Position numbers and translations under genes: made by a program. The notes under the pieces were generated by a model. The model ran no database searches. It had not been told where the DNA came from and was given only the letters and a program-made list of their open reading frames with translations. A stretch of DNA of 60,683 nucleotides, the filler included. It is 4 parts of 4 records of this genome, joined end to end, with 100 filler letters (N's around TTAATTAATTAA, not from the genome) between each part and the next. Parts side by side here need not be neighbours in the genome. Positions count along the whole stretch, not along the records: positions 34,650 to 60,683 come from SRR31156797_16428; 3 more parts are not named here. One strand, 5' to 3'. This document shows, piece after piece, positions 22,247 through 59,172 of the stretch; position 1 is the first letter of the stretch; every line of letters begins with the position of its first letter.

Positions 22247-22249
22247 TTT

Positions 22250-25847: not shown

Positions 25848-26005
25848 ATCTCACTCCAGACATGTTGCATTAATTGACCGGAATCTCTTAACTTAATAGA
25901 CACTCATGCTAAAAAAGTCAAGAAAAAAACAGTATTGCCTGAAACACGCTGACAGTTCAGCAAAAATTGCACTTATTCCAAATGTAACTTATTTCCACAT
26001 ACTAC

Positions 26006-34894: not shown

Positions 34895-37800
34895 TTAGTT
34901 TAGACTAATAGATTGATGGATTCTTTTTTTATTTCCCTTTCTCAGGCTTATTTCTTTTAAGAGTAATTTGTAATTACTATTTGTTGTTTTATCATTTGAA
35001 TTTTTAATGATTGATGATGAAATTATATCGTATAAATTTAAATTACTGATTAACTCAAAAGTGTTTAGTTTATATAGTTTAGTTTTAGTCACAGAGGTAA
35101 TTTCTATACTCGCTTTATAATCAATGTGTAGGTCAATTGAACTTAAAAAAGAGTTACTGTGATAAATGTTTGCTGTTTTGCCATTGATTTTCAATTCTAC
35201 TTCTCCTTCGTATATAATATAAAAGAATGGTTGTACTTCATAATGAGATGCTTCATATATTGTGTTTTCTTTTTCTACAATAATTGGATTTATGTTGCTC
35301 GTTAGATGTTTAAGTATTTCGCCCGGTATCCCTTTAAACTCATCTATTGTTTGTAAATATTCAATGATTTCATGTTTCAATATGGGCATCGTTTTTTTAT
35401 TTGAGTCACTTTCGTCAATAACACTAAATGATTTCTGACCAATTATAGAGATAATGTTATTCTTAAGGTTTTTAATGTTTTTACGGTATATTTTTTTATC
35501 CTGGTCTTTTAAAATAGATGCTGACAACTCAGAAATCATTGCATCTGGGTTAACCATATTTGCTAGTAAAATAGTTTGATGGGAATTATTAGTTAGTTCC
35601 TTTAATTCCATAATAGAACATGCTTTAGTCCAGCCGTTCACCCATTTGGAGTCCCGTTGAATTAAATCGTATAGTAAGTTTTCTATATTTAATGATTCAG
35701 TTATAAATTGCGAACTCATTTTTTTTACCCTTTGTTCATTCTTTAATGGTCTTAGTAAAGGAATGATCATGGGTTTTATTTCATCTTTTATTATTACAGT
35801 AGATAGCTCAAGTGCAAATGCTATTTTTTCAATTTTGTTACTATTGAGATTTTTTTTAATTAGATCTATACTTCCTGGATTGTATAAAAGCGATAATAAA
35901 TTATACATCTTAATATAATTCTCCTTTAGTTCTGTTTCCATTGCTCTTAAGAGCTTATTTGAAGCGCCATATTTATTAAGGTCTACCATATAAGACGTAT
36001 TCCAAACAATATATTTACATGTATCTTCAAGTTCTTCGAGTACCGCGTACTTTTTATTATCTGGTAATTCTATATTACAATTGCTAAGTGCAATTAAAGC
36101 TTCCGAAACAATATTTTGATTTGTATGATTCAATTTTTTTAATAGTTGCTCTATTGACTTTTCTGATGCTATTTTTCCAAGAACCTGAATTATTCTAATT
36201 TGAACTTGTTCTTTTTGACCTGTTCTATTAAATGCTTCTTCCAATAATTCAATATAGTTCTCTCCAGTTGCTGAAAGCGCATAAAACGCTGCATTTGCAG
36301 TCCTATCGTCACCTAATTTTTTTATTGTAGAGTTAATTATTACTTTATTATTAATCGTATCAGCAGCAATAATAGCATTTTTTGAGACCTGGCTTGAGTT
36401 GTCATTTATTAGTCTATTAATAATATCTTCTCGTTCATTTTGTGGAGCATGTCCAACAATCAGGCTACTATGAATTCTCTCTTCTTCTTTTTTAGAAATA
36501 GATAGCTGCGAAATATAATTGTGCTTTTGCATTTTTCGCTCTACTTCGGCGAATTTTACGATAAGTTGGTCTATTTTATCACGGTTTGGAGAAGAAGCAT
36601 AGTATTTAGTCTTTGAAATATTCTTCATGTCATTGTAAATACTAAGCAAATAGTATTTAATTGCTCCTATTATTCCAATTCTTTGCGCAATTGTATCTTC
36701 AGAGTTTGAAAGATTTTTGAGAACTTCTTTTGCTTTAATTGGATTTATCAATTGTACCAGATTGATTATTCTAATCCATTCTGCCCCTTTAAAGTTATTG
36801 ATATTAGATAATATTGTATTAATGAATGATTCCTGATGAAAATCAGATTGACTCTCTTTATGCAGTTTTGAATGAAGTGCTTTTTTATAGTTAGAATAAA
36901 CCAGATATCGAATAATGGGGTATAGAATTAATAATAATCCAAAATTTCCAACGATGTAATTGCTATTGTTTTTAATGTTTATACCCGGTAAAATGAAAGC
37001 ACACACTAATGCCGCAACTCCTATTCCCAAAAATATGCCGTAATAGCTGCTTTTTATATAAAAGTCATTAGACGTGTTGTTGTCTAATGGCAAGTAAAGC
37101 CTATTAATGGCAGGATAAAAAATATTTAGAAAAATAAATTGGGTGAAAATGATGAAAAGTACTGCAAATATTGAAACGAAGAAGAAAAACTCATGTTTTT
37201 CATTAATGTTGAATAAGAAAGTATTTAAAATAAATACTATGCTAAATATACTTATTGCAATAGTTAATAATTGCAAATTGACCTTCATATTTAGAATGTA
37301 AATAAGCTTTTCTTTGAAAAAGAATTCATAGGCTAAAGAAATAAGTGCATAAACGAAAACCAGTATCGAAAGTAAGTTTGCCAGTTCAGTTGAAGAAGTG
37401 TATTTGGTAGTGTTTGTTTTAATAAAAAAACCATATGATAATGAAATAGCAGACACAGCTAAAATCATAAGTAGCAAGATGGAAAGGAAGTATTTTTGAA
37501 AGACAAGTTTATAAAATCGCTGGCTGGTTTTTATTGTCTGTATATTATCCTGTAAATAATTAACTTGTTTATTACCATAAAAATAGATTATAGTAAATAT
37601 GGCACTTAAAATTAGAAATGCCATTGAAACAAAGAATAGTCCATTTGTTCCCAGTATTGTAGTTGTAAGATCAGATAAGTAAATAAATACAATACTTCCA
37701 GTTAAAAGACCAATTGTATTTCCTATGTTGATAGATCTTTCTGTAATTTTATTTTGAATACTCGTTAATCTTGAAATAATACCTTTTTGAGAGAGTATAA

Positions 37801-38134
37801 TTAAGAAATTGATCGTCAGGTTCAAGCTTGCCAACAGAATTTCTATTTTTTCATTAAAGTGATATATTTCATTTAATTGATAAACAGAAAGTGTAGCAAA
37901 TAGTAAAATGTAAGTGAATATAATTGGAACTCTATAAAGAAAAACTCTTTGTAGAAAATTGAAAGTGATGGTTACTAAGAGACCAATTATAGACGTATAA
38001 GTAAGTAGCAGTGTAATATCATAGTTAGAATGATGTTGATTAAAGAAAGCTGAGAAGAATTTAATATCAAAAATACTTTTTCCCAAAAGGAGGGTAAAAC
38101 TAATGATAAGTAATCTTAGATAAGATGATTTCAT
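34895..38134 (-). CDS. Multi-TM NTT/TLC(MFS)-like membrane protein with HEAT repeats and a C-terminal cNMP-binding-like domain
   Basis: About 12 N-terminal hydrophobic helices; central helical repeats (IIQVLGKIASEKSIEQLLKKL, VSEALIALS); C-terminal EFKGIPGEIL...FYIIYEGEVELKING. Confidence 0.7.
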   Translation of the reverse strand: MKSSYLRLLIISFTLLLGKSIFDIKFFSAFFNQHHSNYDITLLLTYTSIIGLLVTITFNFLQRVFLYRVPIIFTYILLFATLSVYQLNEIYHFNEKIEILLASLNLTINFLIILSQKGIISRLTSIQNKITERSINIGNTIGLLTGSIVFIYLSDLTTTILGTNGLFFVSMAFLILSAIFTIIYFYGNKQVNYLQDNIQTIKTSQRFYKLVFQKYFLSILLLMILAVSAISLSYGFFIKTNTTKYTSSTELANLLSILVFVYALISLAYEFFFKEKLIYILNMKVNLQLLTIAISIFSIVFILNTFLFNINEKHEFFFFVSIFAVLFIIFTQFIFLNIFYPAINRLYLPLDNNTSNDFYIKSSYYGIFLGIGVAALVCAFILPGINIKNNSNYIVGNFGLLLILYPIIRYLVYSNYKKALHSKLHKESQSDFHQESFINTILSNINNFKGAEWIRIINLVQLINPIKAKEVLKNLSNSEDTIAQRIGIIGAIKYYLLSIYNDMKNISKTKYYASSPNRDKIDQLIVKFAEVERKMQKHNYISQLSISKKEEERIHSSLIVGHAPQNEREDIINRLINDNSSQVSKNAIIAADTINNKVIINSTIKKLGDDRTANAAFYALSATGENYIELLEEAFNRTGQKEQVQIRIIQVLGKIASEKSIEQLLKKLNHTNQNIVSEALIALSNCNIELPDNKKYAVLEELEDTCKYIVWNTSYMVDLNKYGASNKLLRAMETELKENYIKMYNLLSLLYNPGSIDLIKKNLNSNKIEKIAFALELSTVIIKDEIKPMIIPLLRPLKNEQRVKKMSSQFITESLNIENLLYDLIQRDSKWVNGWTKACSIMELKELTNNSHQTILLANMVNPDAMISELSASILKDQDKKIYRKNIKNLKNNIISIIGQKSFSVIDESDSNKKTMPILKHEIIEYLQTIDEFKGIPGEILKHLTSNINPIIVEKENTIYEASHYEVQPFFYIIYEGEVELKINGKTANIYHSNSFLSSIDLHIDYKASIEITSVTKTKLYKLNTFELISNLNLYDIISSSIIKNSNDKTTNSNYKLLLKEISLRKGNKKRIHQSISLN

Positions 38135-38154: not shown

Positions 38155-38778
38155 CTATTTAGCTTCAATAGGTGCTTTATTTATTGTGGGCTTTATTGAT
38201 TCAACCGCATCAATTTTTGCTCTTTTCGCTGCTTCTTTGGCTGCTTTTTTCTCAGCGTTTTTCTTTGCTTTTTCTTCGTTTAATTGCCATTTGAGGAATC
38301 CTTTGTTGTAGTATGGATATTCGAGTAGCATTAAGTTTTTTATGGACCTTCTTCCGAAACGATTAAGCTTATAAAATCCATAGATATGCATATCTATCAC
38401 CTTTTTTCTGCGTTTTTTGAACTTAATGTAATTGTGAAAATAAGCTCTTGCTAAACCTTCTGAGAAGAACTTAGAGGGATAGTCAATGTTTTTTCCTTTT
38501 AAAGGTGGTCTAACCATCATTAAAGAAATGTTATCGTCTTGTTTGATAAATAGGAACCAGTACCACTTGTATTTGAGTGCATAAACATCGTATGCTACGC
38601 AATTTTGAGTAGTGCCATAATGTCCAATATGGTAGTTTCGGAGTTCACCTAAAAGATGTTTGATGCTTTGGTCTCTACTTTCGATATTCAATTTAGTCGT
38701 GTCTGTTTGACCATGGCTTTTGAAGGAAGACAATAGTAGGATAGTTATTACGATTATTACGTAAAGCTGGCTTTTCAT
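38155..38778 (-). CDS. Secreted basic hypothetical protein
   Basis: Signal peptide, Lys/aromatic-rich, Ala/Lys-rich tail; 20 bp from the next gene. Confidence 0.7.
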   Translation of the reverse strand: MKSQLYVIIVITILLLSSFKSHGQTDTTKLNIESRDQSIKHLLGELRNYHIGHYGTTQNCVAYDVYALKYKWYWFLFIKQDDNISLMMVRPPLKGKNIDYPSKFFSEGLARAYFHNYIKFKKRRKKVIDMHIYGFYKLNRFGRRSIKNLMLLEYPYYNKGFLKWQLNEEKAKKNAEKKAAKEAAKRAKIDAVESIKPTINKAPIEAK

Positions 38779-38838
38779 GTTTTATACTTTTAGATCCTTT
38801 CGGACAACTTGTTTTTATTGCAGATAATTCTGACGATG

Positions 38839-38846
38839 CAAAAATA
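38839..38846 (-). promoter_or_regulatory. Bacteroidota -7 element for the leftward operon
   Basis: TATTTTTG on the minus strand about 60 bp above 38778. Confidence 0.45.
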
Positions 38847-39060
38847 ATGAACTTATTAAATATTCATAATAAAGCGCTCAAAAAAATATTGTTATAAAAA
38901 TATGTGAGTATTGTTTTATTTATGAGCTTATTAGCAAATTTTAGTACCAAATTTTCATAATCCTAGCTAAAAAATATTTTGGTAGGTGGATATTTTTTTC
39001 TTCTTTTACACCGCGAATTAATCAGCGGATAATACCAAAGATTATAGCATAAAAACAAAC

Positions 39061-40827
39061 ATGAAACAGGTCTTATTACTTATCATATTTATATGTGGAG
39101 TAGTATCTTTAAGTGCCCAAAGCAGCGTACTTAAAGAAATTAATACAACACTCTCTCCTAAAAAAGAAACTAAAATCACAACTGATTCGGTTGTGGTTGA
39201 TTCCATTGTTAAAAATAATTACCAAAAGTTAAATGATTCTTTGTTAGTGTCTTACACTGATTCATTAAATCAACAAGATAAGATTACATTATCAGAGATT
39301 GACCAATCAATTGATATTGACACTCAAAAATATATACAAAGAATAATGGGGTCAAGGAAGCCACTAACTCCAAATAAACGAACTTCAGAAATTGAGTGGT
39401 CTAAAGAGTTTAATATTTCAAATGATGTTAGGTATGCAAAGAAACATCTTTTAGATACTAGCTTTAAGGTATTTGGATGGCATCCATATTGGATGGGAAA
39501 TGCATACAAAAGTTATAACTATTCTTTACTTTCATATATTTCTTATTTCTCATATGAAGTAAATCCCCAGACGGGTTTTTACAATACTATTCATAATTGG
39601 CGTAAAACTTCTATGGTTGATTCTGCACAAAAGTATAATTGTAAAGTGCTTTTAACCCTTACAAATTTTGGCTCAATTGAGAATAGAACATTATTAAATT
39701 CCACTGATGCTCAAAAGAATCTAATATCAACGGCAATTACCCTTGTTAGAGAGCGAAAAGCTGATGGGCTAACGGTTGATTTTGAGAGTGTTCCGGGAGA
39801 TATGAGGGTGAAGTTCACGAATTTTATTATAGCTCTTTCAACTAGCATGAAAGAGGAAAATGAAAATTTTGTTTTAAGTGTCGCATTGCCCGCAGTTGAT
39901 TTTGAGAAAGTATACGATTTTACCCAGATTGATAAGTACGTAGATTTGTATGTTATTATGGGGTATGAGTATTATGGAATGAATAGTAAATATGCTGGCC
40001 CTGTCGCTCCTCTTTCTGATGGTAATAAATGGGGAAGCTTTACACTTGAGAATTCTGTAAAGCAATACAAAAGTTTGGAGGTTAATAATAAGAAAATCTT
40101 ACTGGCGCTTCCATATTATGGAGCTGAGTGGGTTACAAGAGATCTTCGCGTTCCTTCAAAAACAAAATCTTTTATAAAATACTATTCATATAGCCAGGCC
40201 AAATCATTAACCAGAAATAAAATTGGAGATCTTGATATTGGCAGTGATAGTAAGTTTTATGCATATAGTGATAGATCTTTAAATTACAGACAACTTTGGT
40301 TTGAGGATTCTGCTACATTATCCAAAAAGTACGATTGGATAAAAGAACAGGAGTTAGGAGGAGTTGGAATTTGGGCATTGGGATATGATAATGGAAATGA
40401 CGAATTATGGAAATTATTAGCGGATAAGTTTGCCTATACGGAGGATCAAGTGAAAGAGATTGAGCGCAGTAAAAATAGACTGTCGGCTAAAAAGTTAATG
40501 ATGTGGGTTAAAAGACTAATTAAAAATCCCAAATCTGTAATTACCAAACCTAAAGCATTTTTAAGATTGTTTGGCGCGCTAGCAGGGGTGAGCTTGATTG
40601 GATTATTTATCATTATTAGGTATAGTAACAAATTCAAAAGAATATTTAAGCTAGTTCTAAAAGGTGGTATAGCAGGAATTATAATTATGACCATTGCTTT
40701 GATATTTATCTTTCTTAAATATTTTGAAGTAAGAGAATTACTATTTCTGATTGGTGGTTTTATGATTGGACTAATATTATTTTTTGCGTTTACGAGAAGG
40801 TATATAAGTGAGAAAGACCTTCCATAA
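39061..40827 (+). CDS. GH18 glycoside hydrolase with signal peptide and three C-terminal TM helices
   Basis: VFGWHPYW, DGLTVDFE, IMGYEY, AGPVAPL, LALPYYG, LGGVGIWALGYD; hydrophobic C-terminus. Confidence 0.85.
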   Translation: MKQVLLLIIFICGVVSLSAQSSVLKEINTTLSPKKETKITTDSVVVDSIVKNNYQKLNDSLLVSYTDSLNQQDKITLSEIDQSIDIDTQKYIQRIMGSRKPLTPNKRTSEIEWSKEFNISNDVRYAKKHLLDTSFKVFGWHPYWMGNAYKSYNYSLLSYISYFSYEVNPQTGFYNTIHNWRKTSMVDSAQKYNCKVLLTLTNFGSIENRTLLNSTDAQKNLISTAITLVRERKADGLTVDFESVPGDMRVKFTNFIIALSTSMKEENENFVLSVALPAVDFEKVYDFTQIDKYVDLYVIMGYEYYGMNSKYAGPVAPLSDGNKWGSFTLENSVKQYKSLEVNNKKILLALPYYGAEWVTRDLRVPSKTKSFIKYYSYSQAKSLTRNKIGDLDIGSDSKFYAYSDRSLNYRQLWFEDSATLSKKYDWIKEQELGGVGIWALGYDNGNDELWKLLADKFAYTEDQVKEIERSKNRLSAKKLMMWVKRLIKNPKSVITKPKAFLRLFGALAGVSLIGLFIIIRYSNKFKRIFKLVLKGGIAGIIIMTIALIFIFLKYFEVRELLFLIGGFMIGLILFFAFTRRYISEKDLP

Positions 40828-40842
40828 TAGGGTTTTAGAGGC

Positions 40843-41385
40843 ATGATTAATAGTGTAGTATCATTAATAGTGGAAAAATTAAATGAAAATCTGAATAACA
40901 GATTTTCTCAAACTTCGGATATTGTTGTACCTGGTACGCTCAATGACCTTGAGAATGAGAATAACTCTGTGTATCAGGATAAATTAATTTTGACATTATC
41001 GAATATAGAGCATGAAAGATTAGCTTTCAGTCAAAATCCACGATCTTATAACACACCAATTAATTTATATTTGTACATCTTAATATCTGCTAATTTTCAA
41101 CAAAGTAATTATGTGCAAGGATTAGGTATGTTGTCCGCAGTAATTAGTTTTTTCCAATATTTTGCTAATTGGAATCATTCTAATGCGCCGGGACTGGAAA
41201 GCAATCTTGAAAAACTAACATTTGAATTAGTAAACTTGAATATACAGGAATTAAGTCAGCTTTGGGGAGTACATGGGGGAAAGTATTTACCCTCTGTACT
41301 TTATAAAGTCAGGACTATAAGGATTTCTGAGGATATAGATGAGCCAGGATCATTAATGGGTGGTTTTGGCGCTGGAGTTTCATAA
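40843..41385 (+). CDS. CIS cap/tail terminator (DUF4255, Afp16/Pvc16-like)
   Basis: LSAVISFFQ, LSQLWGVHGGKYLPSVLYKVR; position at the head of the CIS operon. Confidence 0.88.
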   Translation: MINSVVSLIVEKLNENLNNRFSQTSDIVVPGTLNDLENENNSVYQDKLILTLSNIEHERLAFSQNPRSYNTPINLYLYILISANFQQSNYVQGLGMLSAVISFFQYFANWNHSNAPGLESNLEKLTFELVNLNIQELSQLWGVHGGKYLPSVLYKVRTIRISEDIDEPGSLMGGFGAGVS

Positions 41386-41441
41386 TTGGGGACTCATTTG
41401 AATAGGGATTTTTTTAAACAAGTCATGAAATCAGTTTAATT

Positions 41442-42488
41442 ATGATTAATCTGAAATTTCAGTTTAAGCCATTTATTTCAATGGCAGTACAGCATGAATA
41501 TTACCCAAAGGGAGAAAATAATGAAATGTATTTTCTCCCTACCCCTCGTACTGCATCTAATTTGGAGAAAATGGCAATGATGATTCGTCCTCAGGATGGT
41601 GCCCTTAAAGTACTTTTTGATGTTTCAAAAATGGAACTTTTATATCAAAGGCTTTCTCAGGCCACTGACAATGACCTCAAGTTATCATTTCTTTTATTTT
41701 CGCGAAATCCTTATTTCCTCAACTTTACCGATATTCCGGTAGAAATTCAAAATAAGGTTTTCTATTTTTCCAATGCTCATTTGAAAGACAACTTCAAAGG
41801 CCAATTGCATGAAAATGATTTTGTAGATGCTACGCAATTAACCTCTGTTAATCCTTTAGTTCTAGCGGATAATGAGGAAGGCAAAAACAAATATTCTTAT
41901 GCTGTTGATAGGGGGACTGAGGCAAATATTAATAAAATTCAACATGGCCGCCAAATTGATACAACAAAATTGCTAGATGGTTATTATAGAATTTTTGCCA
42001 ATGATAAGGAGTTAACATCCTTCATAAACCTGGGGGCTAAAACCAAGCAATCACCAATTGGGTTTGTGGATATTTTCCTCTCAGGAAAGATGAAAGCTAA
42101 AATTATGAAGTCTATTGATAATGGCGAACTTCCTGACATGAACTATAAGTTAAATTTCAATGCCAGATCAATATATTGGCGTTATAATGTTGTTCCATTG
42201 CATACGAAACGAATAAAGAATCTCAAGGTAAATTGCAATAAGGGAAACCCAAAGATTTCATTCAAAGGTCTCGGAGAATTTGAATATAACGAAAATCGCA
42301 TGCATTCATTCATTTCAGAGAAACCTGTGAAGTTTAATAAGCAATATGATTACGAGATTCAATTAAAAAAACAGGAAGGTGAAAGTGGTGGAAAGGTTCT
42401 CATGAAGAAATTAGCTTTTGCTTCATTTGATATAATAAAACCAATGAATGAAACTGATTATATGTCAGAAATATACGTGTATATATAA
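41442..42488 (+). CDS. CIS-associated protein between cap and sheath (possible cap adaptor)
   Basis: VQHEYY, NPYFLNFTD, FNARSIYWRY, SEIYVYI; position typical of Bacteroidota CIS loci. Confidence 0.6.
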   Translation: MINLKFQFKPFISMAVQHEYYPKGENNEMYFLPTPRTASNLEKMAMMIRPQDGALKVLFDVSKMELLYQRLSQATDNDLKLSFLLFSRNPYFLNFTDIPVEIQNKVFYFSNAHLKDNFKGQLHENDFVDATQLTSVNPLVLADNEEGKNKYSYAVDRGTEANINKIQHGRQIDTTKLLDGYYRIFANDKELTSFINLGAKTKQSPIGFVDIFLSGKMKAKIMKSIDNGELPDMNYKLNFNARSIYWRYNVVPLHTKRIKNLKVNCNKGNPKISFKGLGEFEYNENRMHSFISEKPVKFNKQYDYEIQLKKQEGESGGKVLMKKLAFASFDIIKPMNETDYMSEIYVYI

Positions 42489-42526
42489 GGTAAAACAGTT
42501 TATATAAATTTTAATTTTAATTACTT

Positions 42527-44131
42527 ATGTCACAAACATTAGCTACACCAGGGGTTTATATTGAAGAAAGGAATGCATTTCCTAATTCAGTAGCTGCAAT
42601 CCCTACAGCAGTACCCGCATTTATAGGGTATACAGAAAAAGTAGTCCGTGATGGTGAATCACTAATAAACAAACCTGTTCGAATATCATCATTTGCAGAG
42701 TTTGTTTCCATTTTCGGAGAAGGATTTAAAACAGGATTTGAAATTACAGAAGTTGAAAGTATTGAAAAAGGCTTTGATTTTTCTGTAGATGACAAATTCT
42801 ATACAGTAAAACAAGAGAAGGAATCTCGTTTTATATTTTTTGATGGCATCCGCATGTTTTTTGAAAATGGTGGTTCAGCTTGCTATATAGTTTCTGCAGG
42901 TTCATATACAACTACTGTTTCTAAATCAGCACCAGGAAAACCAGCGTCAAAAGACCCTAAAACAGGTAAAGAAACTCCTGCAACAGCAGGGAAAACTGTT
43001 GAGGAAATAAAAATCAATGAGATTTCGAAAAAAGCACTATCAGATGGTATTACGGCACTTGTTGCTGAAGAAGAACCAACTATGTTGGCTATTCCTGAAG
43101 CAGTGATGCTTGACGAAGCTGATTGTTTTGCGTTACAGCAAGAAATGTTATTGCACTGTGGATTCAAGATGCAGAACAGATTTGCTTTGATTGATGTATA
43201 CAATGGATATCAGAAGCGAACTTATGATAAAAATGATGTTGTCACTAGATTCAGAGAAGGAATTGGATCAAATTTCTTAGCATTTAGTGCAGCTTATTAT
43301 CCATATGTGAATGCCGCTGTTGTTCAAAAAGAAGAGGTTGATGTGGCTAATATTGTTAACCCTGAATTACTAAATACTTTATTATCAAAAGAAGCTGATA
43401 AGCTTTATGATAATGCCAAAAAAGCTGATGAAGCTAAAAATGAAATCAAAAAGATATTAGATGAAAATGCTGATATTGCTTCATTAACACAAACTTTAAA
43501 TACCATTAGCCCTGCATTTAAGAAAATAATGAGTGCTGTATTAAGGAAGCTGAATATACTTCCTCCAAGTGCAGCTATGGCAGGTGCATTAAGTATGGTA
43601 GATAACTCACGCGGTGTATGGAAAGCTCCTGCTAACCTAAGTCTGGCGTCAGTTGTATCCCCGGTAGTGAATTTAACCAACGAAGACCAGGAAGATCTTA
43701 ACGTAACAGTATCAGGTAAATCAATAAATGCAATCCGTTCATTTGTAGGGCAGGGAACGCTTGTTTGGGGCGCTCGCACATTGGATGGCAACAGCCAGGA
43801 TTGGAAATACATTAACGTGCGTCGTACAATGATTTTCATTGAGCAATCTGTTAAGGCTGCAGCTAAAGCATACGTTTATGAGCCTAATACTGCTGGTACA
43901 TGGACCCTTGTAAGAAGTATGATTAGTTCTTTTTTAACTACAGTTTGGAAACAAGGTGGATTAGCTGGGCTAACTCCTTCCGATGCATTTAATGTTGAAG
44001 TTGGTTTAGGTTCAACGATGACACCAAATGATATTTTAGATGGAATAATGAACGTGACAGTGAAAGTTGCTGTAACACGACCAGCTGAATTTATCGTAAT
44101 TACTTTCCAGCAAAAAATGCAGGAATCATAA
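42527..44131 (+). CDS. CIS contractile sheath protein (Afp2/3/4-like)
   Basis: TPGVYIEE, TAVPAFIGYTE, FFENGG, RGVWKAPAN, VWGARTL, YINVRR, RPAEFI. Confidence 0.96.
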   Translation: MSQTLATPGVYIEERNAFPNSVAAIPTAVPAFIGYTEKVVRDGESLINKPVRISSFAEFVSIFGEGFKTGFEITEVESIEKGFDFSVDDKFYTVKQEKESRFIFFDGIRMFFENGGSACYIVSAGSYTTTVSKSAPGKPASKDPKTGKETPATAGKTVEEIKINEISKKALSDGITALVAEEEPTMLAIPEAVMLDEADCFALQQEMLLHCGFKMQNRFALIDVYNGYQKRTYDKNDVVTRFREGIGSNFLAFSAAYYPYVNAAVVQKEEVDVANIVNPELLNTLLSKEADKLYDNAKKADEAKNEIKKILDENADIASLTQTLNTISPAFKKIMSAVLRKLNILPPSAAMAGALSMVDNSRGVWKAPANLSLASVVSPVVNLTNEDQEDLNVTVSGKSINAIRSFVGQGTLVWGARTLDGNSQDWKYINVRRTMIFIEQSVKAAAKAYVYEPNTAGTWTLVRSMISSFLTTVWKQGGLAGLTPSDAFNVEVGLGSTMTPNDILDGIMNVTVKVAVTRPAEFIVITFQQKMQES

Positions 44132-44178: not shown

Positions 44179-44616
44179 ATGGCTGATGAATTATGGCCCA
44201 TACCAAAGTTTCATTTTAAAGTTGAATGGGCAGGAAACGATATAGGTTTTCAAGAAGTCTCCGGATTAGAAATGGAGACACAATTTATTGAATACAGAGC
44301 AGGAGATGATCCTACTTTTTTAACTCAAAAAATTCCAGGATTGAAAAAGCATGGTAACATTACCTTGAAAAAAGGTGTTTATGCCGGCGATTCTGCTTTC
44401 TGGGAGTGGTTTAGCGATGTGCAAACTAACCCGGATCGTCGTGAAGAGGTTATTATTCAATTATTGGATGAAGAAGAAAATCCTGTCGTTACATGGACTG
44501 TTACCAATGCATTTCCTGTAAAGGTTTCTGGTCCTGATTTAAAATCAGATGCTAACGAAATAGCTATTGAGTCTATTGAACTAGCGCATGAAGGATTTGA
44601 AGTTGAATATGCATAA
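44179..44616 (+). CDS. CIS inner tube protein (Afp1, T4 gp19-like)
   Basis: FQEVSGL, IEYRAG, NITLKKG, IAIESIELAHEG. Confidence 0.95.
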   Translation: MADELWPIPKFHFKVEWAGNDIGFQEVSGLEMETQFIEYRAGDDPTFLTQKIPGLKKHGNITLKKGVYAGDSAFWEWFSDVQTNPDRREEVIIQLLDEEENPVVTWTVTNAFPVKVSGPDLKSDANEIAIESIELAHEGFEVEYA

Positions 44617-44640
44617 TGACTTAATGTCATGAAACAGCTT

Positions 44641-44672
44641 TTATCCAGAGGACCGAAAGGTTCTCTGGATAA
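44641..44672 (+). promoter_or_regulatory. 14-bp stem with GAAA tetraloop between the tube genes
   Basis: TTATCCAGAGGACC-GAAA-GGTTCTCTGGATAA (one G-U pair), no U tract. Confidence 0.7.
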
Positions 44673-44690
44673 TTAAAAGGAGTTTTCCAT

Positions 44691-45182
44691 ATGTCAATTA
44701 GTTTTAATATAACCTCAGGAAATAGCAGTGATGCGCCAGAACCAGCTCTAGGTTTTAGGTATAGGGTTAGTATTTCGGGTATATATGATACTGCTGAGAT
44801 GGGGTTTAGTGAAATATCTGGATTAACTACAGAACTTGAAACTGAGCAAGTGTTTGCAGGGGGCGAAAATAATTTTGTATATAATCTACCTAAACAGGTT
44901 AAAAGCACACCACTTGTATTAAAGCGAGGTTTTTTTAATTCTAATTCCAGTATTGCACAATGGATCAATGATGTTTTATCAAATGGATTTCCAAGTAATG
45001 TCGATGCAAAGGACGTTGTAATACAATTGATAAATGAGCAGAATGATCCAATTATCACCTGGACACTCCGTAATGCCTATCCAACAAAATGGGAAGTAAG
45101 TGGATTCAATGCCATGGAAAATAAGATGGTAGTGGAATCAATTACTTTGAATTATTCAAGTTTCGAATTGGAATTTAATTAG
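44691..45182 (+). CDS. CIS second tube protein (Afp5-like)
   Basis: FSEISGL, GGENNFVYNLP, LVLKRG, NAYPTKW. Confidence 0.92.
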   Translation: MSISFNITSGNSSDAPEPALGFRYRVSISGIYDTAEMGFSEISGLTTELETEQVFAGGENNFVYNLPKQVKSTPLVLKRGFFNSNSSIAQWINDVLSNGFPSNVDAKDVVIQLINEQNDPIITWTLRNAYPTKWEVSGFNAMENKMVVESITLNYSSFELEFN

Positions 45183-45184
45183 TT

Positions 45185-45355
45185 ATGCCTGTTGAAATAA
45201 AAGAATTATTAGTTCGGTTCAATGTAACAGAAAACAGTCAGGGAGCTAAAAATGCGCCTGATAGCAATCAGATTAACCTACCAACCTACAAGAAAATTGT
45301 ACGCGATTGTACCGAGCAGGTTTTAAGAACATTAGAGCGTAAAAGTGAAAGGTAA
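45185..45355 (+). CDS. Small CIS protein (Afp6/DUF5908-like, 56 aa); not in the ORF track
   Basis: Hand translation MPVEIKELLVRFNV...IVRDCTEQVLRTLERKSER; fills the gap between tube2 and the LysM gene. Confidence 0.85.
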   Translation: MPVEIKELLVRFNVTENSQGAKNAPDSNQINLPTYKKIVRDCTEQVLRTLERKSER

Positions 45356-45369
45356 AACGTAAAGCAAGG

Positions 45370-46074
45370 ATGAATTACTTAACGATATTTGGTTATGATG
45401 CAGAAGGGGACGGTCCGGCAGAAAAGGCTTTTAATGAAAATGATCCTTTCAAAGCTCAACTAAATCCAAACGCTATAAAGCTTTCGCAGACAGTTACCTA
45501 TACGGCAAATCCTGGCGAGTCGACAGATTCTCAGATCATTACTCATCAAAAGTTTGGGGGTGTTCCTGCGCCGACATTGAATTTGGAGTTATTACTTGAC
45601 AGTACGGGGGCTATTCCATCAGAAGGTAACGATATGGCCGTAGCTGATAGAGTAAAGAAATTTCAGGAAACTTGCTTTTTCTATAGAGGTGAAAAGCACG
45701 AAACACCTTATGTGAAGCTTCTTTGGAATGGCAATTCATTATTTAAGTATAACGATCATGCTTATTTTGCACGAATCAAAAGTTTCGATGTAAACTATAC
45801 CCTATTTTCACCTGAGGGTGAGCCTTTGAGAGCAAAAATTACTGCTACTTTTCTTGGTACTATGGATACCAAAACGCAGGCAAAGATTATGGACAAGCAA
45901 TCGCCGGATTTAACCCATGTTGTAACGGTAAAAGCTGGAGATACTTTACCAATGCTTTGCGAAAGAATATATGGTTCAAGGCAAATGTTTCATGAGGTAG
46001 CCAGAGTAAATAATTTATTAAGTTTTAGATATATAAAACCGGGTACAGAACTGGTTTTTCCTCCGATTAAATAA
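45370..46074 (+). CDS. CIS tube initiator/hub with LysM domain (Afp7-like)
   Basis: LNPN, YTLFSPEGEPLRA, SPDLTHVVTVKAGDTLPMLCERIYG. Confidence 0.92.
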   Translation: MNYLTIFGYDAEGDGPAEKAFNENDPFKAQLNPNAIKLSQTVTYTANPGESTDSQIITHQKFGGVPAPTLNLELLLDSTGAIPSEGNDMAVADRVKKFQETCFFYRGEKHETPYVKLLWNGNSLFKYNDHAYFARIKSFDVNYTLFSPEGEPLRAKITATFLGTMDTKTQAKIMDKQSPDLTHVVTVKAGDTLPMLCERIYGSRQMFHEVARVNNLLSFRYIKPGTELVFPPIK

Positions 46075-46079
46075 CCATT

Positions 46080-47867
46080 ATGGCAGACAAACTTAAAGAT
46101 ATTGTAAAAAGTCCTATAACCTATACTATTTCATGCAATGGGTCTGAAATACCAGGTGAATATAGCGTAGAGTCTGTCATAGTCTTAAAAGAAGTAAACA
46201 AGGTTTCATCCGCATTTATTCAAGTGGCAGATGGAGGCTATTCAGACAGTAGTGAATTTTCAATAAGTGATTCCGGGAACTTTAATCCCGGCACTGAAAT
46301 AGAAATATCTGCCGGTTATGCTTCAGAAGAGGAGGTTATTTTTAAGGGTATTGTAATGAGGCATGGTTTGCGCATTGTGAGGGGTAGGTTTTCACTTGAT
46401 ATTGAATGTAAAGATGTGGCTGTAAAAGCTACGGTAGGTCGCAAAAATAAGATTTTTGAAGCCAAACTTGATAGTGATATTATATCGGAAGTGTTGGGAG
46501 AGTATTCTGATTTGGCCATCAACGTAGAGGCAACAAATTACGAACATCCGGAATTATTACAAAGCTATATATCCGATTGGGATTTTGTGATTCAAAGGGC
46601 TGATGTGAATGGAATGATTTTACTGAATTCAGATGGTGAAATTGAAATTAAAAAGCCAGAAGCAGGTTCTCCTGTACTTGATTTATCACCTGACGGAGAT
46701 TTGAAATCATTTGATGCATATATTGACGCAAGAAATGTGGTTAGTGCAGTAAAAGGAGTTTCCTGGGATATGGATAATCAGGAAATAATAGAAGCCAACT
46801 CAAATGCTCCTGCTTCAAATGATGTAGGAAATATTTCGTCAGATGATCTAGCCGGGGTAATTGGTTTAGAGGAGTTTTTATTGAGCACAACTGCAAATAC
46901 GCCAATGGAGGTTCTAACTGAATGGGCCTCAGCTCAACTTACCAAATCAGAATGGTCTAAGGTAAGGGGAAAAATTGCTATTCAGGGTTACAATAGAATA
47001 TTGCCCGGTGATACTATCAACCTTGAGGGCTTTAGTGAGCAGTTCAATGGTACAGTATTTATCTCATCTGTGGAGCATATTATTGAAGGAGGAGATTTTA
47101 CTACTGAGCTTGAATTAGGATTGTCTGCAAATTGGTATGCTGAAGAGAAACCTAACTTTTATGCACCCCCTGCATCAGGATTAATTCCACCTGTTAATGG
47201 ATTATATATAGGAGTTGTTGAGCAAATTCATGAGGATGAAAATGGTCAGTATCGTATAAAGGTTAAAATGCCAACTCTTCAATCAGAGACATTGACTTTA
47301 TGGGCAAGAATGACAACGCTTTATGCAACTGCAGAAGCCGGTATTTTCTTTTATCCGGAGGTTGGTGATGAAGTTATTGTGGGCTTTTTGAATCAGGATG
47401 CTCAAAGTCCGGTTGTTTTAGGATCTGTACATAATAAAATTAATGTTCCACCGGAAGAGCCGGCAGAAGAGAACTTTATCAAAAAGATTACGACAAAAGA
47501 GAAACTTCAAATCTCCTTTGATGAAGAAAATAAGGCTATTATAGTAGAAACTCCTGAGGGAAATATGATCACGATGAATGATACAGATGGCAATATTAGC
47601 ATTGCTGATATGAATGATAATTTAGTTGAGTTGTCCGCAGATGGAGTCAAGGTAGAAAGTGCCGGAGATATTATTTTGAGTGCTCAGGGCAATATCGAAC
47701 TTGCAGCTCAGGGTGATATAACCCTGGGTGCAACTGGTGATGTGGGCGTAGAGGGAATGAATATAGAAAATAAAGGAACTGCTGCTTTTAAAGCTGAAGG
47801 TGCCAATTGTGAAGTGAATGGTTCGGCACAAACAGTTATTAAAGGTGGTATGGTAATGATAAATTAA
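46080..47867 (+). CDS. CIS spike protein, VgrG/Afp8-like
   Basis: SDWDFVIQRADVNG, GLYIGVV, RIKVKMP, WARM, PEVGDEVIVGF, IKGGMVMIN. Confidence 0.93.
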   Translation: MADKLKDIVKSPITYTISCNGSEIPGEYSVESVIVLKEVNKVSSAFIQVADGGYSDSSEFSISDSGNFNPGTEIEISAGYASEEEVIFKGIVMRHGLRIVRGRFSLDIECKDVAVKATVGRKNKIFEAKLDSDIISEVLGEYSDLAINVEATNYEHPELLQSYISDWDFVIQRADVNGMILLNSDGEIEIKKPEAGSPVLDLSPDGDLKSFDAYIDARNVVSAVKGVSWDMDNQEIIEANSNAPASNDVGNISSDDLAGVIGLEEFLLSTTANTPMEVLTEWASAQLTKSEWSKVRGKIAIQGYNRILPGDTINLEGFSEQFNGTVFISSVEHIIEGGDFTTELELGLSANWYAEEKPNFYAPPASGLIPPVNGLYIGVVEQIHEDENGQYRIKVKMPTLQSETLTLWARMTTLYATAEAGIFFYPEVGDEVIVGFLNQDAQSPVVLGSVHNKINVPPEEPAEENFIKKITTKEKLQISFDEENKAIIVETPEGNMITMNDTDGNISIADMNDNLVELSADGVKVESAGDIILSAQGNIELAAQGDITLGATGDVGVEGMNIENKGTAAFKAEGANCEVNGSAQTVIKGGMVMIN

Positions 47868-47872
47868 AAAAA

Positions 47873-48172
47873 ATGAGTCTAGCAGCAAGAGTTGGTGATA
47901 TGCATACTTGTCCGATGGTTACTCCTGGAACACCACCAGTACCTCATGTTGGTGGAACGATAATGCCTCCAGGAGAACCGACAGTAATGATTGGGGGTGT
48001 CCCTGCTGCTAGAGTAGGAGATATGGCTACTTGTGTTGGTCCGCCTGATTCAATAGTTAAAGGTTCTGCAACAGTTTTGATTGGAGGAATGCCTGCTGCA
48101 AGAATGGGAGATTCCACAGCACATGGTGGCGCCATAGCATTAGGTTGTCCAACAGTAATGATTGGAGGTTAA
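47873..48172 (+). CDS. PAAR spike-tip protein
   Basis: LAARVGD, PAARVGD, PAARMGD repeats with His/Cys metal ligands. Confidence 0.96.
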   Translation: MSLAARVGDMHTCPMVTPGTPPVPHVGGTIMPPGEPTVMIGGVPAARVGDMATCVGPPDSIVKGSATVLIGGMPAARMGDSTAHGGAIALGCPTVMIGG

Positions 48173-48179
48173 AAGCAAA

Positions 48180-48611
48180 ATGATGGAACACAAAAAAACA
48201 TTTTTAGGTGTAGGATGGAAATTTCCACCAACATTTGATAGACAATCAAAGAGTGTAACACTTGTTTCTGAGGAGCAGGACATTAGAGAAAGCTTATTTA
48301 TACTATTATCCACAAGGCCTGGTGAGCGCACAATGCAACCTAATTATGGATGTGATTTAAGTGTACTCAATTTTGAATCTATTAATGAAGGGTTGGTTAA
48401 CAGGGCTAAAGAGATAATTCATAATGCAGTTTTGCACTATGAACCACGCATCTTTTTAGATAATGTAAATGTGTCCACTGCTAAAATGTATGATGGTATT
48501 CTGGAAATATCACTGGAGTATAGGATTCGAAAAACCAATAAGCGTAACAATATTGTATATCCATATTATCTACTTGAAGGGACGGATGTGACCAATATGC
48601 CAGGTCAATAA
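48180..48611 (+). CDS. GPW/gp25-like baseplate protein (Afp9)
   Basis: FLGVGWKFPP, LLSTRPGER, YGC, YEPRI, NIVYPYY. Confidence 0.93.
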   Translation: MMEHKKTFLGVGWKFPPTFDRQSKSVTLVSEEQDIRESLFILLSTRPGERTMQPNYGCDLSVLNFESINEGLVNRAKEIIHNAVLHYEPRIFLDNVNVSTAKMYDGILEISLEYRIRKTNKRNNIVYPYYLLEGTDVTNMPGQ

Positions 48612-48632
48612 ATATTTGATTGAAGAATAGTC

Positions 48633-51600
48633 ATGAGCGAAACAGACAAAATAAACTATCTGAATTTTACGGGTTGTAATCAGCAAGGAAGGTATTCAAG
48701 AGCTTTGAATCCTGAATATGTGAAAATCGATGAGCGAAGTTTTACCGATAATTTGGTCTATTCTCTTGGCTTGTCAAAACTACTAAGTTATTACAACCTC
48801 CAGAACAAACCAGATGGAGACTGGTCTGAATTTTTAACGGATGAAGCAGTGATTTTGGCGGCTATTTCATCTATAAAACCGACTGAATTTGAAGATAAAT
48901 TCAAGAAAAATGTGTACAAAGCTATTTCTTTCAATAAGCCGGATAAAAAGTTGAAATACTTACGAGTTTGTTTCGAAGAAATATTCAAAGTGGCAAAGAA
49001 AATTGACACCTGGTATCAGCAATTAAAAAACGTAGAAGATTTTCAACAATCTGAGCTTCAGATTAGAAATGAAATTTCAAATGTCGTAGACACAAAGTTG
49101 AGAAGTGGGTTTCAAAAGTTTTTCTCTTTTGTTTTAGCTGCAGGTGATAAAAAGACAATCGGTTCTTCCTTTAATTTTGATTTTGAATCATTTAGTTTTA
49201 TTTGGGAACTAAATAAAGTTGAATCATCTGTAGCCATATATACAGGAGAGACATTGCAAGAACGAATTAATTCTGCAGCTGAAGCATTACAAAATATTTT
49301 CCAGTTCTTTTATGAATCGGTTATTTATTTAAAGCAAAAGGCACAAACAAATCTTGATTTTTCTTTGAATCAGGATAATCATTATCCAGAGGTTGCACTT
49401 TTACTTACTTTTCTTAAACTTTATGAATATCCCCAGGCTAATATTAATAAGCTGACAGGGCGTTATCTTGATTATTATTACAGAAAAGTGCTAAAGCAGT
49501 CAGAGAGAAGTGCAGTAAATGATAAAGCCTACTTAACATTTGTTTTGGATAAAGAAGCTTCGGAGGCAGTTGTTCCAAAAGGTGCCCAATTTATTGCCGG
49601 TACAGATTCTGAAGGAAAGAATGTATTTTATGAGACTAATGAAGAGATTGTTTTGAATAAAGCCAAACTTGCTAAAATGGACAATCTCTATGTAGCGCGT
49701 AAATCTTTAAATCTCGATGGTGAAAAAGTAGAGCGGGTAAGTAATTTATACAAATCAGCTATTCCTGTAATTGATTGGGCAGAGAAACCGACTTTAAGCA
49801 AGCGTATGTCATATCCAACATTTGGAGAAGATCAGAAGGGTTTGGGAGATTATGATCTGACAATGGAATATGCTCGACTGGGAATGGCTATTTCCTCGCC
49901 GGCGTTATTGCTCTCTGAAGGTAAGCGAGAGTTAACCATACGAATTCAACTGAAAGAAGAAGCTTTTAATACACTAGAAACACAAATAAAAAATGTTGCA
50001 AAAGAACTGGTCTGTTCTTTTAAAGAAGCCATTGCTAAAAGCTTACTTGATTCTCTTGTAATATCATTAACCTCGGAAGAAGGTTGGTTGCATGTGAAAA
50101 ATAATATTGTAACTATTGAAAAGGGGACGAATAGTCTGTTAATCAAGTTTGATGTTGATCCGGATAAACCTGCAATTATTCCATTTGATAAGAAGATACA
50201 CGGATATGAGCTAGGATCAGATTTTCCGGTTATGAGGTTAATCTTGAATAATGAGAGCTATATCTACCCTTATTCTTTGCTAAATGATATTGAGGTCGAT
50301 CAAATTATTATCCATACAAGGGTGTTGGGCGTGAAGAATTTGCAACTGCACAATAATGTAGGAGCAGTTAATGCAAATGCACCGTTTTTTCCATTTGGTC
50401 CTGTTCCTAAAATTGGGTCGTTTTTAGTGATTGGGAACAATGAGATTTTTCAAAAACAACTAGAGGATATAAAAATAAATTTAGAGTGGTTTGAATTGCC
50501 TCAAGATCCTAATGGATTTAAAGATTATTACAAAGATTATAAATTGAATGTTGATAATACTTCATATGAGGTATCGGTGAGTGTGCTTGATGGGGGTAAA
50601 TGGGTTCCGGAACAACCGGATGAAAAGCAGAAACTAAATTTATTTCGTACTGCTGACAACCCCCAAAATATGGTACCTTCAAAGACGCATCGGTTGTTTA
50701 ACGAAACACGATTCAATAATATTGATATGGACCTTGTTCGTCTGGCTCCAAACTTTAAGTCGGTCAAAGAAAAATCTCAATATAATTCATTATCGAAACG
50801 GGGTTTTCTTAAGCTAGAATTGACAAGTCCTGTACGTGCATTTGGTCATGATGTTTATCCAGCAATAGTTTCAGATATTACTTTGGAGAATTCTAAATCG
50901 GGTTTTTTAAAAGGAAAAACGAAGAAAGATTTGCCTCGATCTGCTTTTACTCCGCAAATTCGAAGTATCTCAGTCGATTATGAAAGCATTTCAGTGATTT
51001 CAATGAAAGAGAACTTTGCTAATGAAGAGAATACTACTTCAGGTCAACTTTTTCATTTGCATCCCTATGGTATTACAAGGGTTTTTCCTAATAAATCTGT
51101 TAAGCAGATCAATATCATTCCTTCATACAATGTTCAGGGAGAGCTTTATCTTGGTTTAAAAGATGTCAACCCACCTCAACAAGTATCTATGTTATTTGAA
51201 ATGTTGGATGAGTTTAATATTTCTTCAGAAGAAGAACCACCTGTATTGGAATGGTCATATTTAGCAAATAACAAGTGGACCATGTTGAAACCTTCAAATA
51301 TATTGAGAGACAATACTAATAATTTCCTTAAAACAGGAATTGTAATTATTAATTTACCTGATGCTATTAACCAGAATAATACAATTCTTAGTGATGAATA
51401 TGTATGGTTGAAAGTAAGTGTGAAAAATAATATTGAAGTTGCCTCACGAAATTTAAGTGCTGCATCGCAGGTTGCAACGGTTTCGCTAGTTGGAAATGAT
51501 AAATTGCATAAGTCTGGGTATTTGGATAAATCAATCCCTAGGTATAAAATTCAGCGATCGGTTAAAAGTATTAAAGGCGTTCGTTCTGTTATTCAACCTT

Positions 51601-52376: not shown

Positions 52377-52405
52377 AAAACAGGAATTTAAACAGATATA
52401 CACAT

Positions 52406-53155
52406 ATGCCACTACAAAACAGGGAAAGTTTAAAAGGTTATTTCAGGAAAGGACAGTTGCCATCAGAAGGTCATTTCCATGATTTAATTGATTCAACCAT
52501 TAATAAGGTTGATGATGGTATGTCAAAAACAATGGAGGATGGCTTAATGCTGGCTCCAATTGGCGAATCACGTAAGCTAATTAGTTTTTTTAAAAGTATT
52601 GAAGATAAAAGTCCGGTCTGGCGAATGGAGGTGGATGAGAATGATGCCGATTTACATTTTTCTAACAAGGTTGGTGATGAGATATTAAGTATTACTGATA
52701 CCGGAAAAGTTGGGATCAATAATCAACAACCGGATGCTAATTTAGATGTGAATGGATATGTAGCCATGTCGGGTCGTGAAGGTAATGCTTTTAGAGGAAA
52801 GGTCCCCGCAAATGGGAAATGGCACAAAATTGCAACGGAGCTGAATGGTTGCCAAATGTTTGAAGTTGTAGCAGGTGTGGGGAAGAAGAAAACCGGAAAA
52901 TATGCTTTGCTTCATGCCATTGCCATGAGCGCGTTTGGCAAGTCAAAATGTAAGATTAAAAAAACACAAGCCAGATATGGAATTCGTGGAAATAGAATGA
53001 AGTTGCGTTGGACAGGGAGTACATATAAATTTAATCTTGAAATCAGAACCCGTTCAAACTATGGGGATGATGTAGCGATCAATTATCATATACAAAAACT
53101 GTGGCACGACCAATTTATGGATAATTGTGTACTTGAAGTAAAGGAAGACAAGTAG
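52406..53155 (+). CDS. Short CIS tail-fibre/adhesin-like protein (Afp13-type N-terminus)
   Basis: NRESLKGYFRKGQLPSEGHFHDLIDSTINKVDDG attachment motif; GKVGIN...LDVNG fibre repeat. Confidence 0.7.
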   Translation: MPLQNRESLKGYFRKGQLPSEGHFHDLIDSTINKVDDGMSKTMEDGLMLAPIGESRKLISFFKSIEDKSPVWRMEVDENDADLHFSNKVGDEILSITDTGKVGINNQQPDANLDVNGYVAMSGREGNAFRGKVPANGKWHKIATELNGCQMFEVVAGVGKKKTGKYALLHAIAMSAFGKSKCKIKKTQARYGIRGNRMKLRWTGSTYKFNLEIRTRSNYGDDVAINYHIQKLWHDQFMDNCVLEVKEDK

Positions 53156-53173
53156 TATATTTTAAACAAGTTT

Positions 53174-56047: not shown

Positions 56048-56058
56048 TTTTATTTGAA

Positions 56059-59076: not shown

Positions 59077-59172
59077 TTGATAATAATATTGGAAATGCTA
59101 CGCAGAAACGCACGATCGTACGTATCGTAAATAAAAGCAATTCCTGTATGAAATTTTATAATAAATAAAGTA

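Follow-up and report, generated by a model that had tools for sequence, protein, structure and literature searches.

The window analysed here is a stretch of 60,683 nucleotides, of which positions 34,650-60,683 come from record SRR31156797_16428 and carry the operon of a contractile injection system (CIS). Directly ahead of the cap gene of this operon, at 39061..40827 on the + strand, lies a gene for a glycoside hydrolase family 18 (GH18) protein that bears a signal peptide and three C-terminal transmembrane (TM) helices. We consider it probable that this protein is an inner-membrane-tethered periplasmic module at the docking site of the CIS, where it would bind and probably cleave peptidoglycan. 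This view is built on its architecture, its fold class, the intact catalytic residues Asp240 and Glu242 and the linkage to CIS loci, all of which were computed here. The question addressed is how CIS without TssJLM, among them the clade Ib systems of Amoebophilus and Aureispira and the Salmonella system SalCIS, are attached to and cross the envelope of their producer.

The window gene is judged to be a Bacteroidota member of the SalCis20 kind. SalCis20 is encoded with the CIS of Salmonella enterica subsp. salamae (Ejaz et al., Nat Commun 2026; bioRxiv 2025; PMC13266070; PDB 9R9A) and combines a Sec signal and three TM helices with a large periplasmic domain that is homologous to SleL (4s3j). 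The two proteins are likened by architecture and context, not by alignment, because they have the same three-part architecture and the same nearest fold, belong to related machines, and because putative SalCis20 homologues were noted in clade Ib genomes (PMC13266070); homology to SalCis20 itself is presumed. The idea of a cell-wall opener or anchor, put forward in the initial annotation of the window, is essentially the hypothesis already published for SalCis20, and the single gene adds little beyond the description of SalCis20 given in 2025-26.

In the proposed mechanism the protein would be exported by Sec, lose its signal peptide before Gln20 and be retained in the inner membrane through its three C-terminal helices. 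A SleL/YdhD-like barrel with a flexible, probably O-glycosylated N-terminal arm would then be located in the periplasm, and the cytoplasm would be reached by a short loop and the ...EKDLP-COOH tail only. In this position the protein may mark and prepare the envelope site for docking of the CIS baseplate. The barrel would bind, and in the window copy probably cut, the glycan strands of peptidoglycan, its presumed substrate, locally for passage of the tube, while the membrane part and the tail would presumably connect this site with the baseplate or with membrane proteins acting as partners.

Architecture and predicted topology

The open reading frame (ORF) encodes 588 amino acids (aa), has an ATG start and a stop codon ending at 40827, and is separated by 15 bp from the next ORF (start 40843). 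As full-length relatives reach 82% identity, it is judged to be a real gene rather than a spurious ORF; three antisense ORFs (61, 63 and 132 aa) are unsupported. Glyco_hydro_18 (PF00704) was matched at residues 152-443 (E 2.3e-33; 116.6 bits as compared to a curated cut-off of 29.6). No other Pfam domain, LysM included, was found in the protein at E<=0.1, and NCBIfam leaves it unnamed. Its topology was derived from a hydropathy scan, an AlphaFold2 model (alignment of 42 relatives; mean predicted local distance difference test (pLDDT) score 77.3) and features of the family. By means of the ORF, Pfam, hydropathy and the model, the layout described initially, i.e. a signal peptide, a GH18 barrel and three C-terminal TM helices 15 bp before the cap gene, was confirmed.

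The predicted signal peptide comprises residues 1-19 (39061..39117): the segment 1-25 is hydrophobic, residues 2-18 are modelled as a helix, and Gln20 is invariant in the 42 relatives. Cleavage would occur before Gln20, between LSA and QSS. According to the 'Q-rule' of signal peptidase I, Bacteroidota substrates typically start with Gln after cleavage. The adjoining pre-barrel region (residues 20-135; 39118..39465) was modelled with low confidence (pLDDT <50 at 16-86) and is probably disordered. It contains four D[ST][AILMTV] motifs, which represent the general O-glycosylation sequon of Bacteroidota, a mark of exported proteins. The mean number of such motifs ahead of the barrel is 3.0 in the family as compared to 0.48 in shuffles, a six-fold excess, and at least one is found in 163 of 167 members.

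The (beta/alpha)8 barrel, supported by Pfam and Foldseek, extends over residues 136-457 (39466..40431) and was modelled at a pLDDT of mostly >90. It is followed by a basic, helical juxtamembrane linker (residues 461-496; 40441..40548; model helices 461-471, 476-488 and 490-495), of which residues 470-496 include nine Lys/Arg in 27 and zero acidic residues. The three predicted TM helices occupy residues 497-583 (40549..40809; model helices 497-521, 526-551 and 557-583), with C-terminal hydropathy peaks near 501, 537 and 560. The protein ends with the putatively cytoplasmic tail RRYISEKDLP (40795..40824).

Exposure of the barrel in the periplasm is backed by the invariant Gln20 and by the six-fold excess of sequons. 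The topology proposed in the initial annotation, with the enzyme in the periplasm on the inner membrane, gains further backing from the envelope localisation described for SalCis20 (PMC13266070). Moreover, the loop between TM1 and TM2 and the C-terminal tail are both basic and thus fit a path that leads from the periplasm in, out and in again. Because of this predicted topology the tail would be the main conserved cytoplasmic element. The terminal Pro is invariant in TM-type sequences (169 of 169), and in the same set Glu is present at position -5 in 147, Lys/Arg at -4 in 159, Asp/Glu at -3 in 153 and Leu at -2 in 142 sequences, SEKDLP being the typical ending.

Family, active site and catalytic loss

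A word-indexed search yielded 995 relatives, and C-terminal TM segments were present in 119 of the best 120. The organism names given for these relatives were all Bacteroidota (e.g. Fulvivirga, Reichenbachiella, Roseivirga, Marinigracilibium, Rhodocytophaga, Persicobacter, Aureibacter and Flavivirga). When 1.84 billion cluster representatives were searched with a profile, 13,545 matches were obtained at E<=0.001 and 1,590 at 1e-30. C-terminal TM segments were found in 86 of the best 150 representatives, and the terminal Pro in 81 of these 86 versus two of the 64 TM-less ones. The family of GH18 proteins with three TM helices is thus large and, where the sources give names, almost all Bacteroidota, and the window locus shows that proteins of the SalCis20 type are no peculiarity of Salmonella. 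The family also supplies many natural variants, catalytically dead ones included. In a literature search no paper was found that reports this large Bacteroidota family, its catalytic loss of ~11% (see below), the terminal Pro or the partner neighbours, nor one that links GH18, the EKDLP tail or the two partner genes to CIS. Nine relatives (P0036, P0047, P0049, P0056, P0058, P0066, P0074, P0085 and P0121) are longer (946-967 aa) and have a second GH18-like stretch before the three TM segments; several of these double-GH18 variants carry Asn at the catalytic Asp.

Among the best 60 PDB matches the nearest solved sequences were Bacillus subtilis YdhD (3cz8; 1e-21), a Desulfitobacterium GH18 protein (4wiw), B. 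megaterium YaaH (4s3k) and B. cereus SleL (4s3j), the three Bacillus proteins all ranking in the top five. The nearest folds detected with Foldseek were SleL 4s3k (4.8e-23), 4wiw and SleL 4s3j, with 4s3k and 4s3j both within the top four. The catalytic motif DGLTVDFE (residues 235-242; 39763..39786) carries Thr238 where the chitinase motif DxxDxDxE has its second Asp, as had been noted from the start. The full chitinase motif is therefore absent from the window protein and the catalytic Asp-x-Glu (Asp240-Phe-Glu242) is present, and Tyr302 and Trp438 are likewise retained. The accompanying remark that GH18 proteins of the SleL/YaaH type also deviate at the middle Asp holds as well, since the PDB alignments place Thr (YdhD) and His (B. 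megaterium YaaH) in this column.

The spore-cortex enzymes SleL/YaaH and YdhD of Bacillus thus resemble the window protein as its best sequence and fold matches in which DxE is kept and the second Asp replaced, at an identity of about 20-24%. N-terminal LysM peptidoglycan-binding domains are part of SleL, whereas no LysM was detected in the window protein, which in addition is predicted to be membrane-tethered in a Gram-negative periplasm and has no spore context. In a survey of B. subtilis hydrolases that cites Lambert and Popham 2008, YaaH/SleL is described as a GH18 glucosaminidase that cuts small peptidoglycan fragments (PMC10653849). The SalCIS paper labels SleL an N-acetylmuramoyl-L-alanine amidase (PMC13266070), and the bond expected to be cut by this protein class therefore differs between the two sources.

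Conservation of the catalytic residues was determined in a set of 169 TM-type sequences comprising 167 full-length members and two fragments. Asp240 is kept in 152 and Glu242 in 160 of the 169. Residue 238 is Asn (93), Thr (34), His (30), Cys (5), Asp (3) or Val (2), and the second chitinase Asp is absent from 164 of the 167 full-length members. Either Asp240 or Glu242 is missing in 18 of the 167 (~11%, about one in nine), with substituted motifs such as DGVNINFE, NGVHIEFD, DGVHLDLM and NGVHLDFA. Both catalytic residues are present in 17 of 17 TM-less relatives.

A divergent copy was found on plasmid pAT3 of Aureibacter tunicatorum (L081), where a second CIS operon ends in an annotated GH18 protein of 576 aa. 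This degenerate GH18-like protein (L081 13617-15347) carries a signal peptide and, C-terminally, three TM segments. Its identity to the window protein over residues 131-575 amounts to 24%; the sheath of pAT3 is 46% identical to that of the window. In its motif, DGIVFDFI, the catalytic Glu is lost and replaced by Ile. A major facilitator superfamily (MFS) transporter and an M20 peptidase were considered as members of the module since both flank the pAT3 gene too. They were rejected: no homolog was found in the 80 loci described below at 1e-10, and the pAT3 pair is unrelated to that of the window.

Judged by these motifs, most family members look active and about one in nine is probably inactive. 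Because of the 18 members without the catalytic Asp or Glu and the pAT3 copy with Ile at the Glu position, cutting of peptidoglycan cannot be the universal role of the family. The interpretation given in the initial annotation, a cell-wall opener or anchor as also hypothesised for SalCis20 (PMC13266070), is supported in part.

The same losses bear on a purely structural alternative, in which the barrel is a lectin-like peptidoglycan-binding module that ties the docking site of the CIS to the wall, and catalysis plays no part. It would be in line with the 18 substituted members and DGIVFDFI of pAT3, and also with the fact that the topology and the C-terminal tail are conserved in catalytically substituted members. 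However, the degree to which Asp240 and Glu242 are conserved argues for selection on catalysis in most lineages, and the window copy has all four residues (Asp240, Glu242, Tyr302 and Trp438). A structural anchor is thus distinctly unlikely.

Alternatively, the protein might act as a release lysin that digests the wall of the producer so that assembled particles escape as extracellular CIS, substituting for a holin/endolysin cassette as the initial annotation had suggested. In favour of this, the barrel has the fold of a GH18 class that acts on peptidoglycan; AlgoCIS, a member of clade Ib, is described as being set free upon lysis (PMC8894135); and the window ORFs of at least 110 aa matched neither a holin nor a phage lysozyme family, where the window end (60683) lies inside or just after the operon and a lysis cassette may follow beyond it. 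A permanent three-helix tether and an invariant cytoplasmic tail, however, are not features of lysis enzymes, and catalytic residues are missing in the members listed above and the pAT3 copy. Moreover, release or secretion was not detected for SalCIS, the Salmonella system with the same type of protein (PMC13266070). The main text of the AlgoCIS paper (PMC8894135) contains none of the words 'chitinase', 'hydrolase', 'transmembrane' and 'peptidoglycan', so that no link of this type of protein to a released system is documented. Release of particles by this protein is very improbable, and the suggested replacement of a holin/endolysin cassette found no backing.

Linkage to CIS loci and neighbouring genes

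The genomic context was determined in 80 loci, which represent the best 80 of 406 relatives with one genome per species. The loci were searched with the window's own proteins (tblastn, jackhmmer), and the architecture was then scored. Sixty-four loci encode a GH18 protein with C-terminal TM helices and 16 a TM-less one (mostly 418-435 aa; mainly Tenacibaculum and other Flavobacteriaceae). The flanks contained at least one CIS structural gene in 45 of the 64 TM-type loci, as compared to 0 of the 16 TM-less loci. When either CIS genes or one of two upstream partner genes (see below) were counted, the respective numbers were 57 of 64 and 0 of 16. The cap gene is located directly downstream in 31 of the 61 TM-type loci whose 3' flank covers at least 600 bp, and a sheath gene is found at a distance of <=3 kb in 33 of 56 with at least 2 kb of flank. 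The gene for GH18 with three TM helices is thus tightly linked to CIS loci, and the co-occurrence test suggested in the initial annotation gave a positive result.

The order of genes varies between loci. The module follows Cis11 and the gene for a 249-aa protein in L047, L050 and L054, and is placed inside rearranged clusters in L051, L053 and L069. The association of GH18 and CIS genes survives rearrangement in L047, L050, L051, L053, L069 and L081. The description of the gene as heading the CIS operon is correct for the window, where it comes first, but this position is not conserved, as the gene is the last one in SalCIS (PMC13266070) and in pAT3. Identity to the window of GH18 and of sheath proteins is correlated (r = 0.91; 31 loci), which is compatible with joint inheritance of a single module, although a common history is in any case to be expected of related genomes. 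The GH18 protein with 82% identity to that of the window is encoded in L001, a metagenome-assembled genome (MAG) of Salinivirgaceae, and the window is accordingly placed in the vicinity of this family.

L037, labelled as an uncultured Roseobacteraceae MAG, is the sole locus among the 64 of TM type that is labelled outside the Bacteroidota. As it carries a full Bacteroidota-like module and operon, the label may be a binning or labelling error. Proteins with eCIS_core (DUF4157), typical CIS cargo, are encoded near GH18 genes with TM helices in L035 (9929-11185) and L046 (1587-2075); in these two loci no CIS structural genes were found within 10 kb.

An ordinary chitinase or wall-recycling enzyme that is no more than a neighbour of the CIS, as might be thought from relatives annotated as 'chitinase' or 'glycosyl hydrolase family 18' and from three loci with the gene among housekeeping genes (L033, L039 and L057), is hardly credible in view of the unequal presence of CIS genes at TM-type and TM-less loci, the persistence of the association through operon rearrangements, the second motif Asp missing in nearly all full-length members, and a predicted inner-membrane tether that would put external chitin out of reach. 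All three alternatives are less likely than a module at the docking site.

Several points nevertheless weigh against such a docking-site module of the SalCis20 type. The segment preceding TM1 is strongly basic, and a naive positive-inside rule would put it in the cytoplasm. The TM helices were modelled at a pLDDT of 52-76 only, and the cytoplasmic exposure is so tiny that contact with the baseplate must be indirect or via a short peptide. To these are added the catalytic losses in about one of nine members. Nineteen of the 64 TM-type loci are without a CIS structural gene in their flanks; 12 of them have partner genes, four are short-flanked and three (L033, L039 and L057) have the gene in full 10-kb housekeeping flanks, as called by scanning 82 ORFs of six loci with Pfam. 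With 775 aa SalCis20 is longer than the window protein (588 aa). Finally, 9R9A was absent from the PDB matches obtained with the whole protein, the profile, the TM part, the N-terminal part and the pAT3 copy (best 60 matches for two of these queries), and if 9R9A was part of the searched PDB set, SalCis20 is no nearer to the family than ordinary chitinases. It was also absent from the Foldseek matches, the library of which extends to 8 April 2026, eight days before the date of the Ejaz paper. A relative of 775 aa (P0183) was considered as a SalCis20 candidate and rejected as it has no TM segment.

Matches to Pfam, NCBIfam and PDB entries revealed a complete CIS operon downstream of the GH18 gene on the same strand. 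It begins with the cap gene (Cis16a; Pvc16_N/DUF4255; 40843..41385; Pfam 8.3e-28, 9r9n_B 5.1e-23, AlgoCIS cap 1.7e-12). The gene for a probable cap adaptor of 348 aa (Cis16b-like; 41442..42488) gave weak matches (All3326 8.1e-4; 'SalCis16b - cap' 8.4e-3) and keeps its position in related loci. The sheath gene (Cis2; 42527..44131) matches 9r9h of SalCIS (1.9e-156), AlgoCIS (1.2e-98) and the thylakoid-anchored tCIS of Anabaena (1.1e-90). The remaining operon (44179..60384, + strand) contains two gp19-type tube genes and genes for CIS_tube, a VgrG-like spike, gp25, a Cis11-like protein of 1247 aa, the 249-aa protein, Cis12 (Alg12 1.7e-79, closer than SalCis12 with 6.6e-46), a tape measure (CIS_TMP; E 5.2e-102) and a protein of 403 aa. 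The gene for the 249-aa protein (52406-53155, + strand) is placed between those for Cis11 and Cis12. Conservation of this protein is unusually high, with an identity of 57-60% in distant Microscillaceae loci as compared to 44% for Cis11, and it is also present in pAT3. It belongs to no Pfam family and weakly matches the Anabaena baseplate chain All3316.

A scan of positions 38600-42600 detected no terminator-like site on the + strand between the GH18 and cap genes, and the two genes are probably co-transcribed. Promoter-like sites in the same region did not exceed the expectation from shuffles in a sigma-70-type scan, which does not cover Bacteroidota promoters. The presumed promoter region is the divergent intergenic region 38779..39060 between the GH18 gene and the gene for a secreted protein of 207 aa.

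The 207-aa protein (38155..38778, - strand) has a signal peptide and is a conserved divergent neighbour: a homolog is both divergent and adjacent in 43 of the 58 TM-type loci whose 5' flank covers at least 1 kb. Its model has a pLDDT of 80.8. Searches gave no Pfam or NCBIfam family, no PDB fold at E<=0.001 and no usable Atlas match for it. Prediction of a complex between GH18 residues 100-588 and the mature 207-aa protein gave a score of 0.00, which is evidence neither way. The second conserved neighbour is a membrane protein of 1079 aa (34895..38134, - strand) with ~11 N-terminal TM segments and HEAT_2 (8.1e-9), homologs of which are present in 33 of 64 TM-type loci. It likely bears a C-terminal domain for binding of cyclic nucleoside monophosphates (cNMP): the homolog in L027 matches cNMP_binding (1.1e-17), and look-alikes in the Atlas carry cNMP_binding, HEAT_2 and TLC (ATP/ADP-transporter-like).

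It is conceivable, if doubtful, that the GH18 protein, the 207-aa protein and the TLC-like/HEAT/cNMP protein form an envelope trio within the trans-envelope and anchoring apparatus of Bacteroidota systems that resemble type VI secretion system subtype iv (T6SSiv). The three proteins would build the inner-membrane and periplasmic part of this apparatus, the ...EKDLP-COOH tail would be the peptide for docking on the cytoplasmic side, and docking or firing would be gated by the protein that binds cyclic nucleotides. The main text of the SalCIS paper (PMC13266070) mentions neither 'cyclic' nor HEAT repeats. The conserved cytoplasmic tail and the two recurrent partner genes provide testable handles on the mechanism of anchoring.

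The remainder of the window contains housekeeping genes. Positions 16001-26000 have a G+C content of 45-49% as compared to about 30-40% elsewhere in the window. The genes located there (ATP synthase c, a Rex-like regulator, DUF3788, GrpB, DUF3786 with an Fe-S motif, FmdE, a molybdopterin-binding protein and a sigma-54 activator) are unlike their neighbours, and this segment could be a transferred island or a chimeric assembly join.

Comparison with known systems

The closest known counterpart of the window protein is SalCis20. They share a Sec-type signal, a periplasmic domain that resembles SleL and three TM helices at the C-terminus, and each is encoded within a CIS cluster of clade Ib, where assignment of the window CIS to clade Ib rests on the nearest solved chains and not on a tree. 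The machines are alike as well: the sheath 9r9h and the cap 9r9n_B of SalCIS are the closest solved chains, and Cis12 matches SalCis12, although Alg12 is closer. The CIS of the window is taken to be of clade Ib and probably cell-bound (T6SSiv-like). According to Ejaz et al. (PMC13266070), SalCis20 is a homodimer in the cryo-EM structure 9R9A, is localised to the membrane and requires its signal sequence for envelope localisation, and the Salmonella CIS adjoins the inner membrane. These authors proposed that SalCis20 remodels the wall and so aids CIS insertion, analogous to MltE in type VI secretion systems (T6SS), and that together with the Afp13-like SalCis13 and SalCis11 it joins the baseplate to the inner membrane (PMC13266070). 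The same role, wall remodelling and association with the inner membrane, is proposed for the window protein. The two differ in host (Bacteroidota versus Enterobacterales) and in gene position, the GH18 gene of the window being first, before the cap gene, and SalCis20 last in the SalCis16a-SalCis20 operon (PMC13266070).

The wall-remodelling helpers of T6SS are alike in that a peptidoglycan-active enzyme is dedicated to a contractile machine that crosses the producer's own wall. TagX of Acinetobacter is such a helper. They differ from the window protein in being a lytic transglycosylase (MltE) or an L,D-endopeptidase (TagX), either soluble or a lipoprotein, and in acting with TssJLM; no homologs of TssJ, TssL and TssM were found in the window with Pfam and NCBIfam. 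MltE is recruited by the classical T6SS of E. coli (cited in PMC13266070).

Two further systems can be compared by description only. The membrane protein CisA is needed for function and firing of the cytoplasmic CIS of Streptomyces coelicolor (10.1101/2024.06.25.600559). It differs from the window protein in its Gram-positive host. To our knowledge, CisA has no GH18 domain. The T6SSiv of Aureispira is, like the window system, a clade Ib CIS of Bacteroidota. It is docked on the inner membrane, without TssJLM, beneath a C6 trans-envelope complex that has outer-membrane, periplasmic and inner-membrane parts (10.1101/2024.01.29.577165). In a metagenome survey the T6SSiv anchoring complex was called 'unique', with Aasi_0556 alone being discussed there (PMC12210884).

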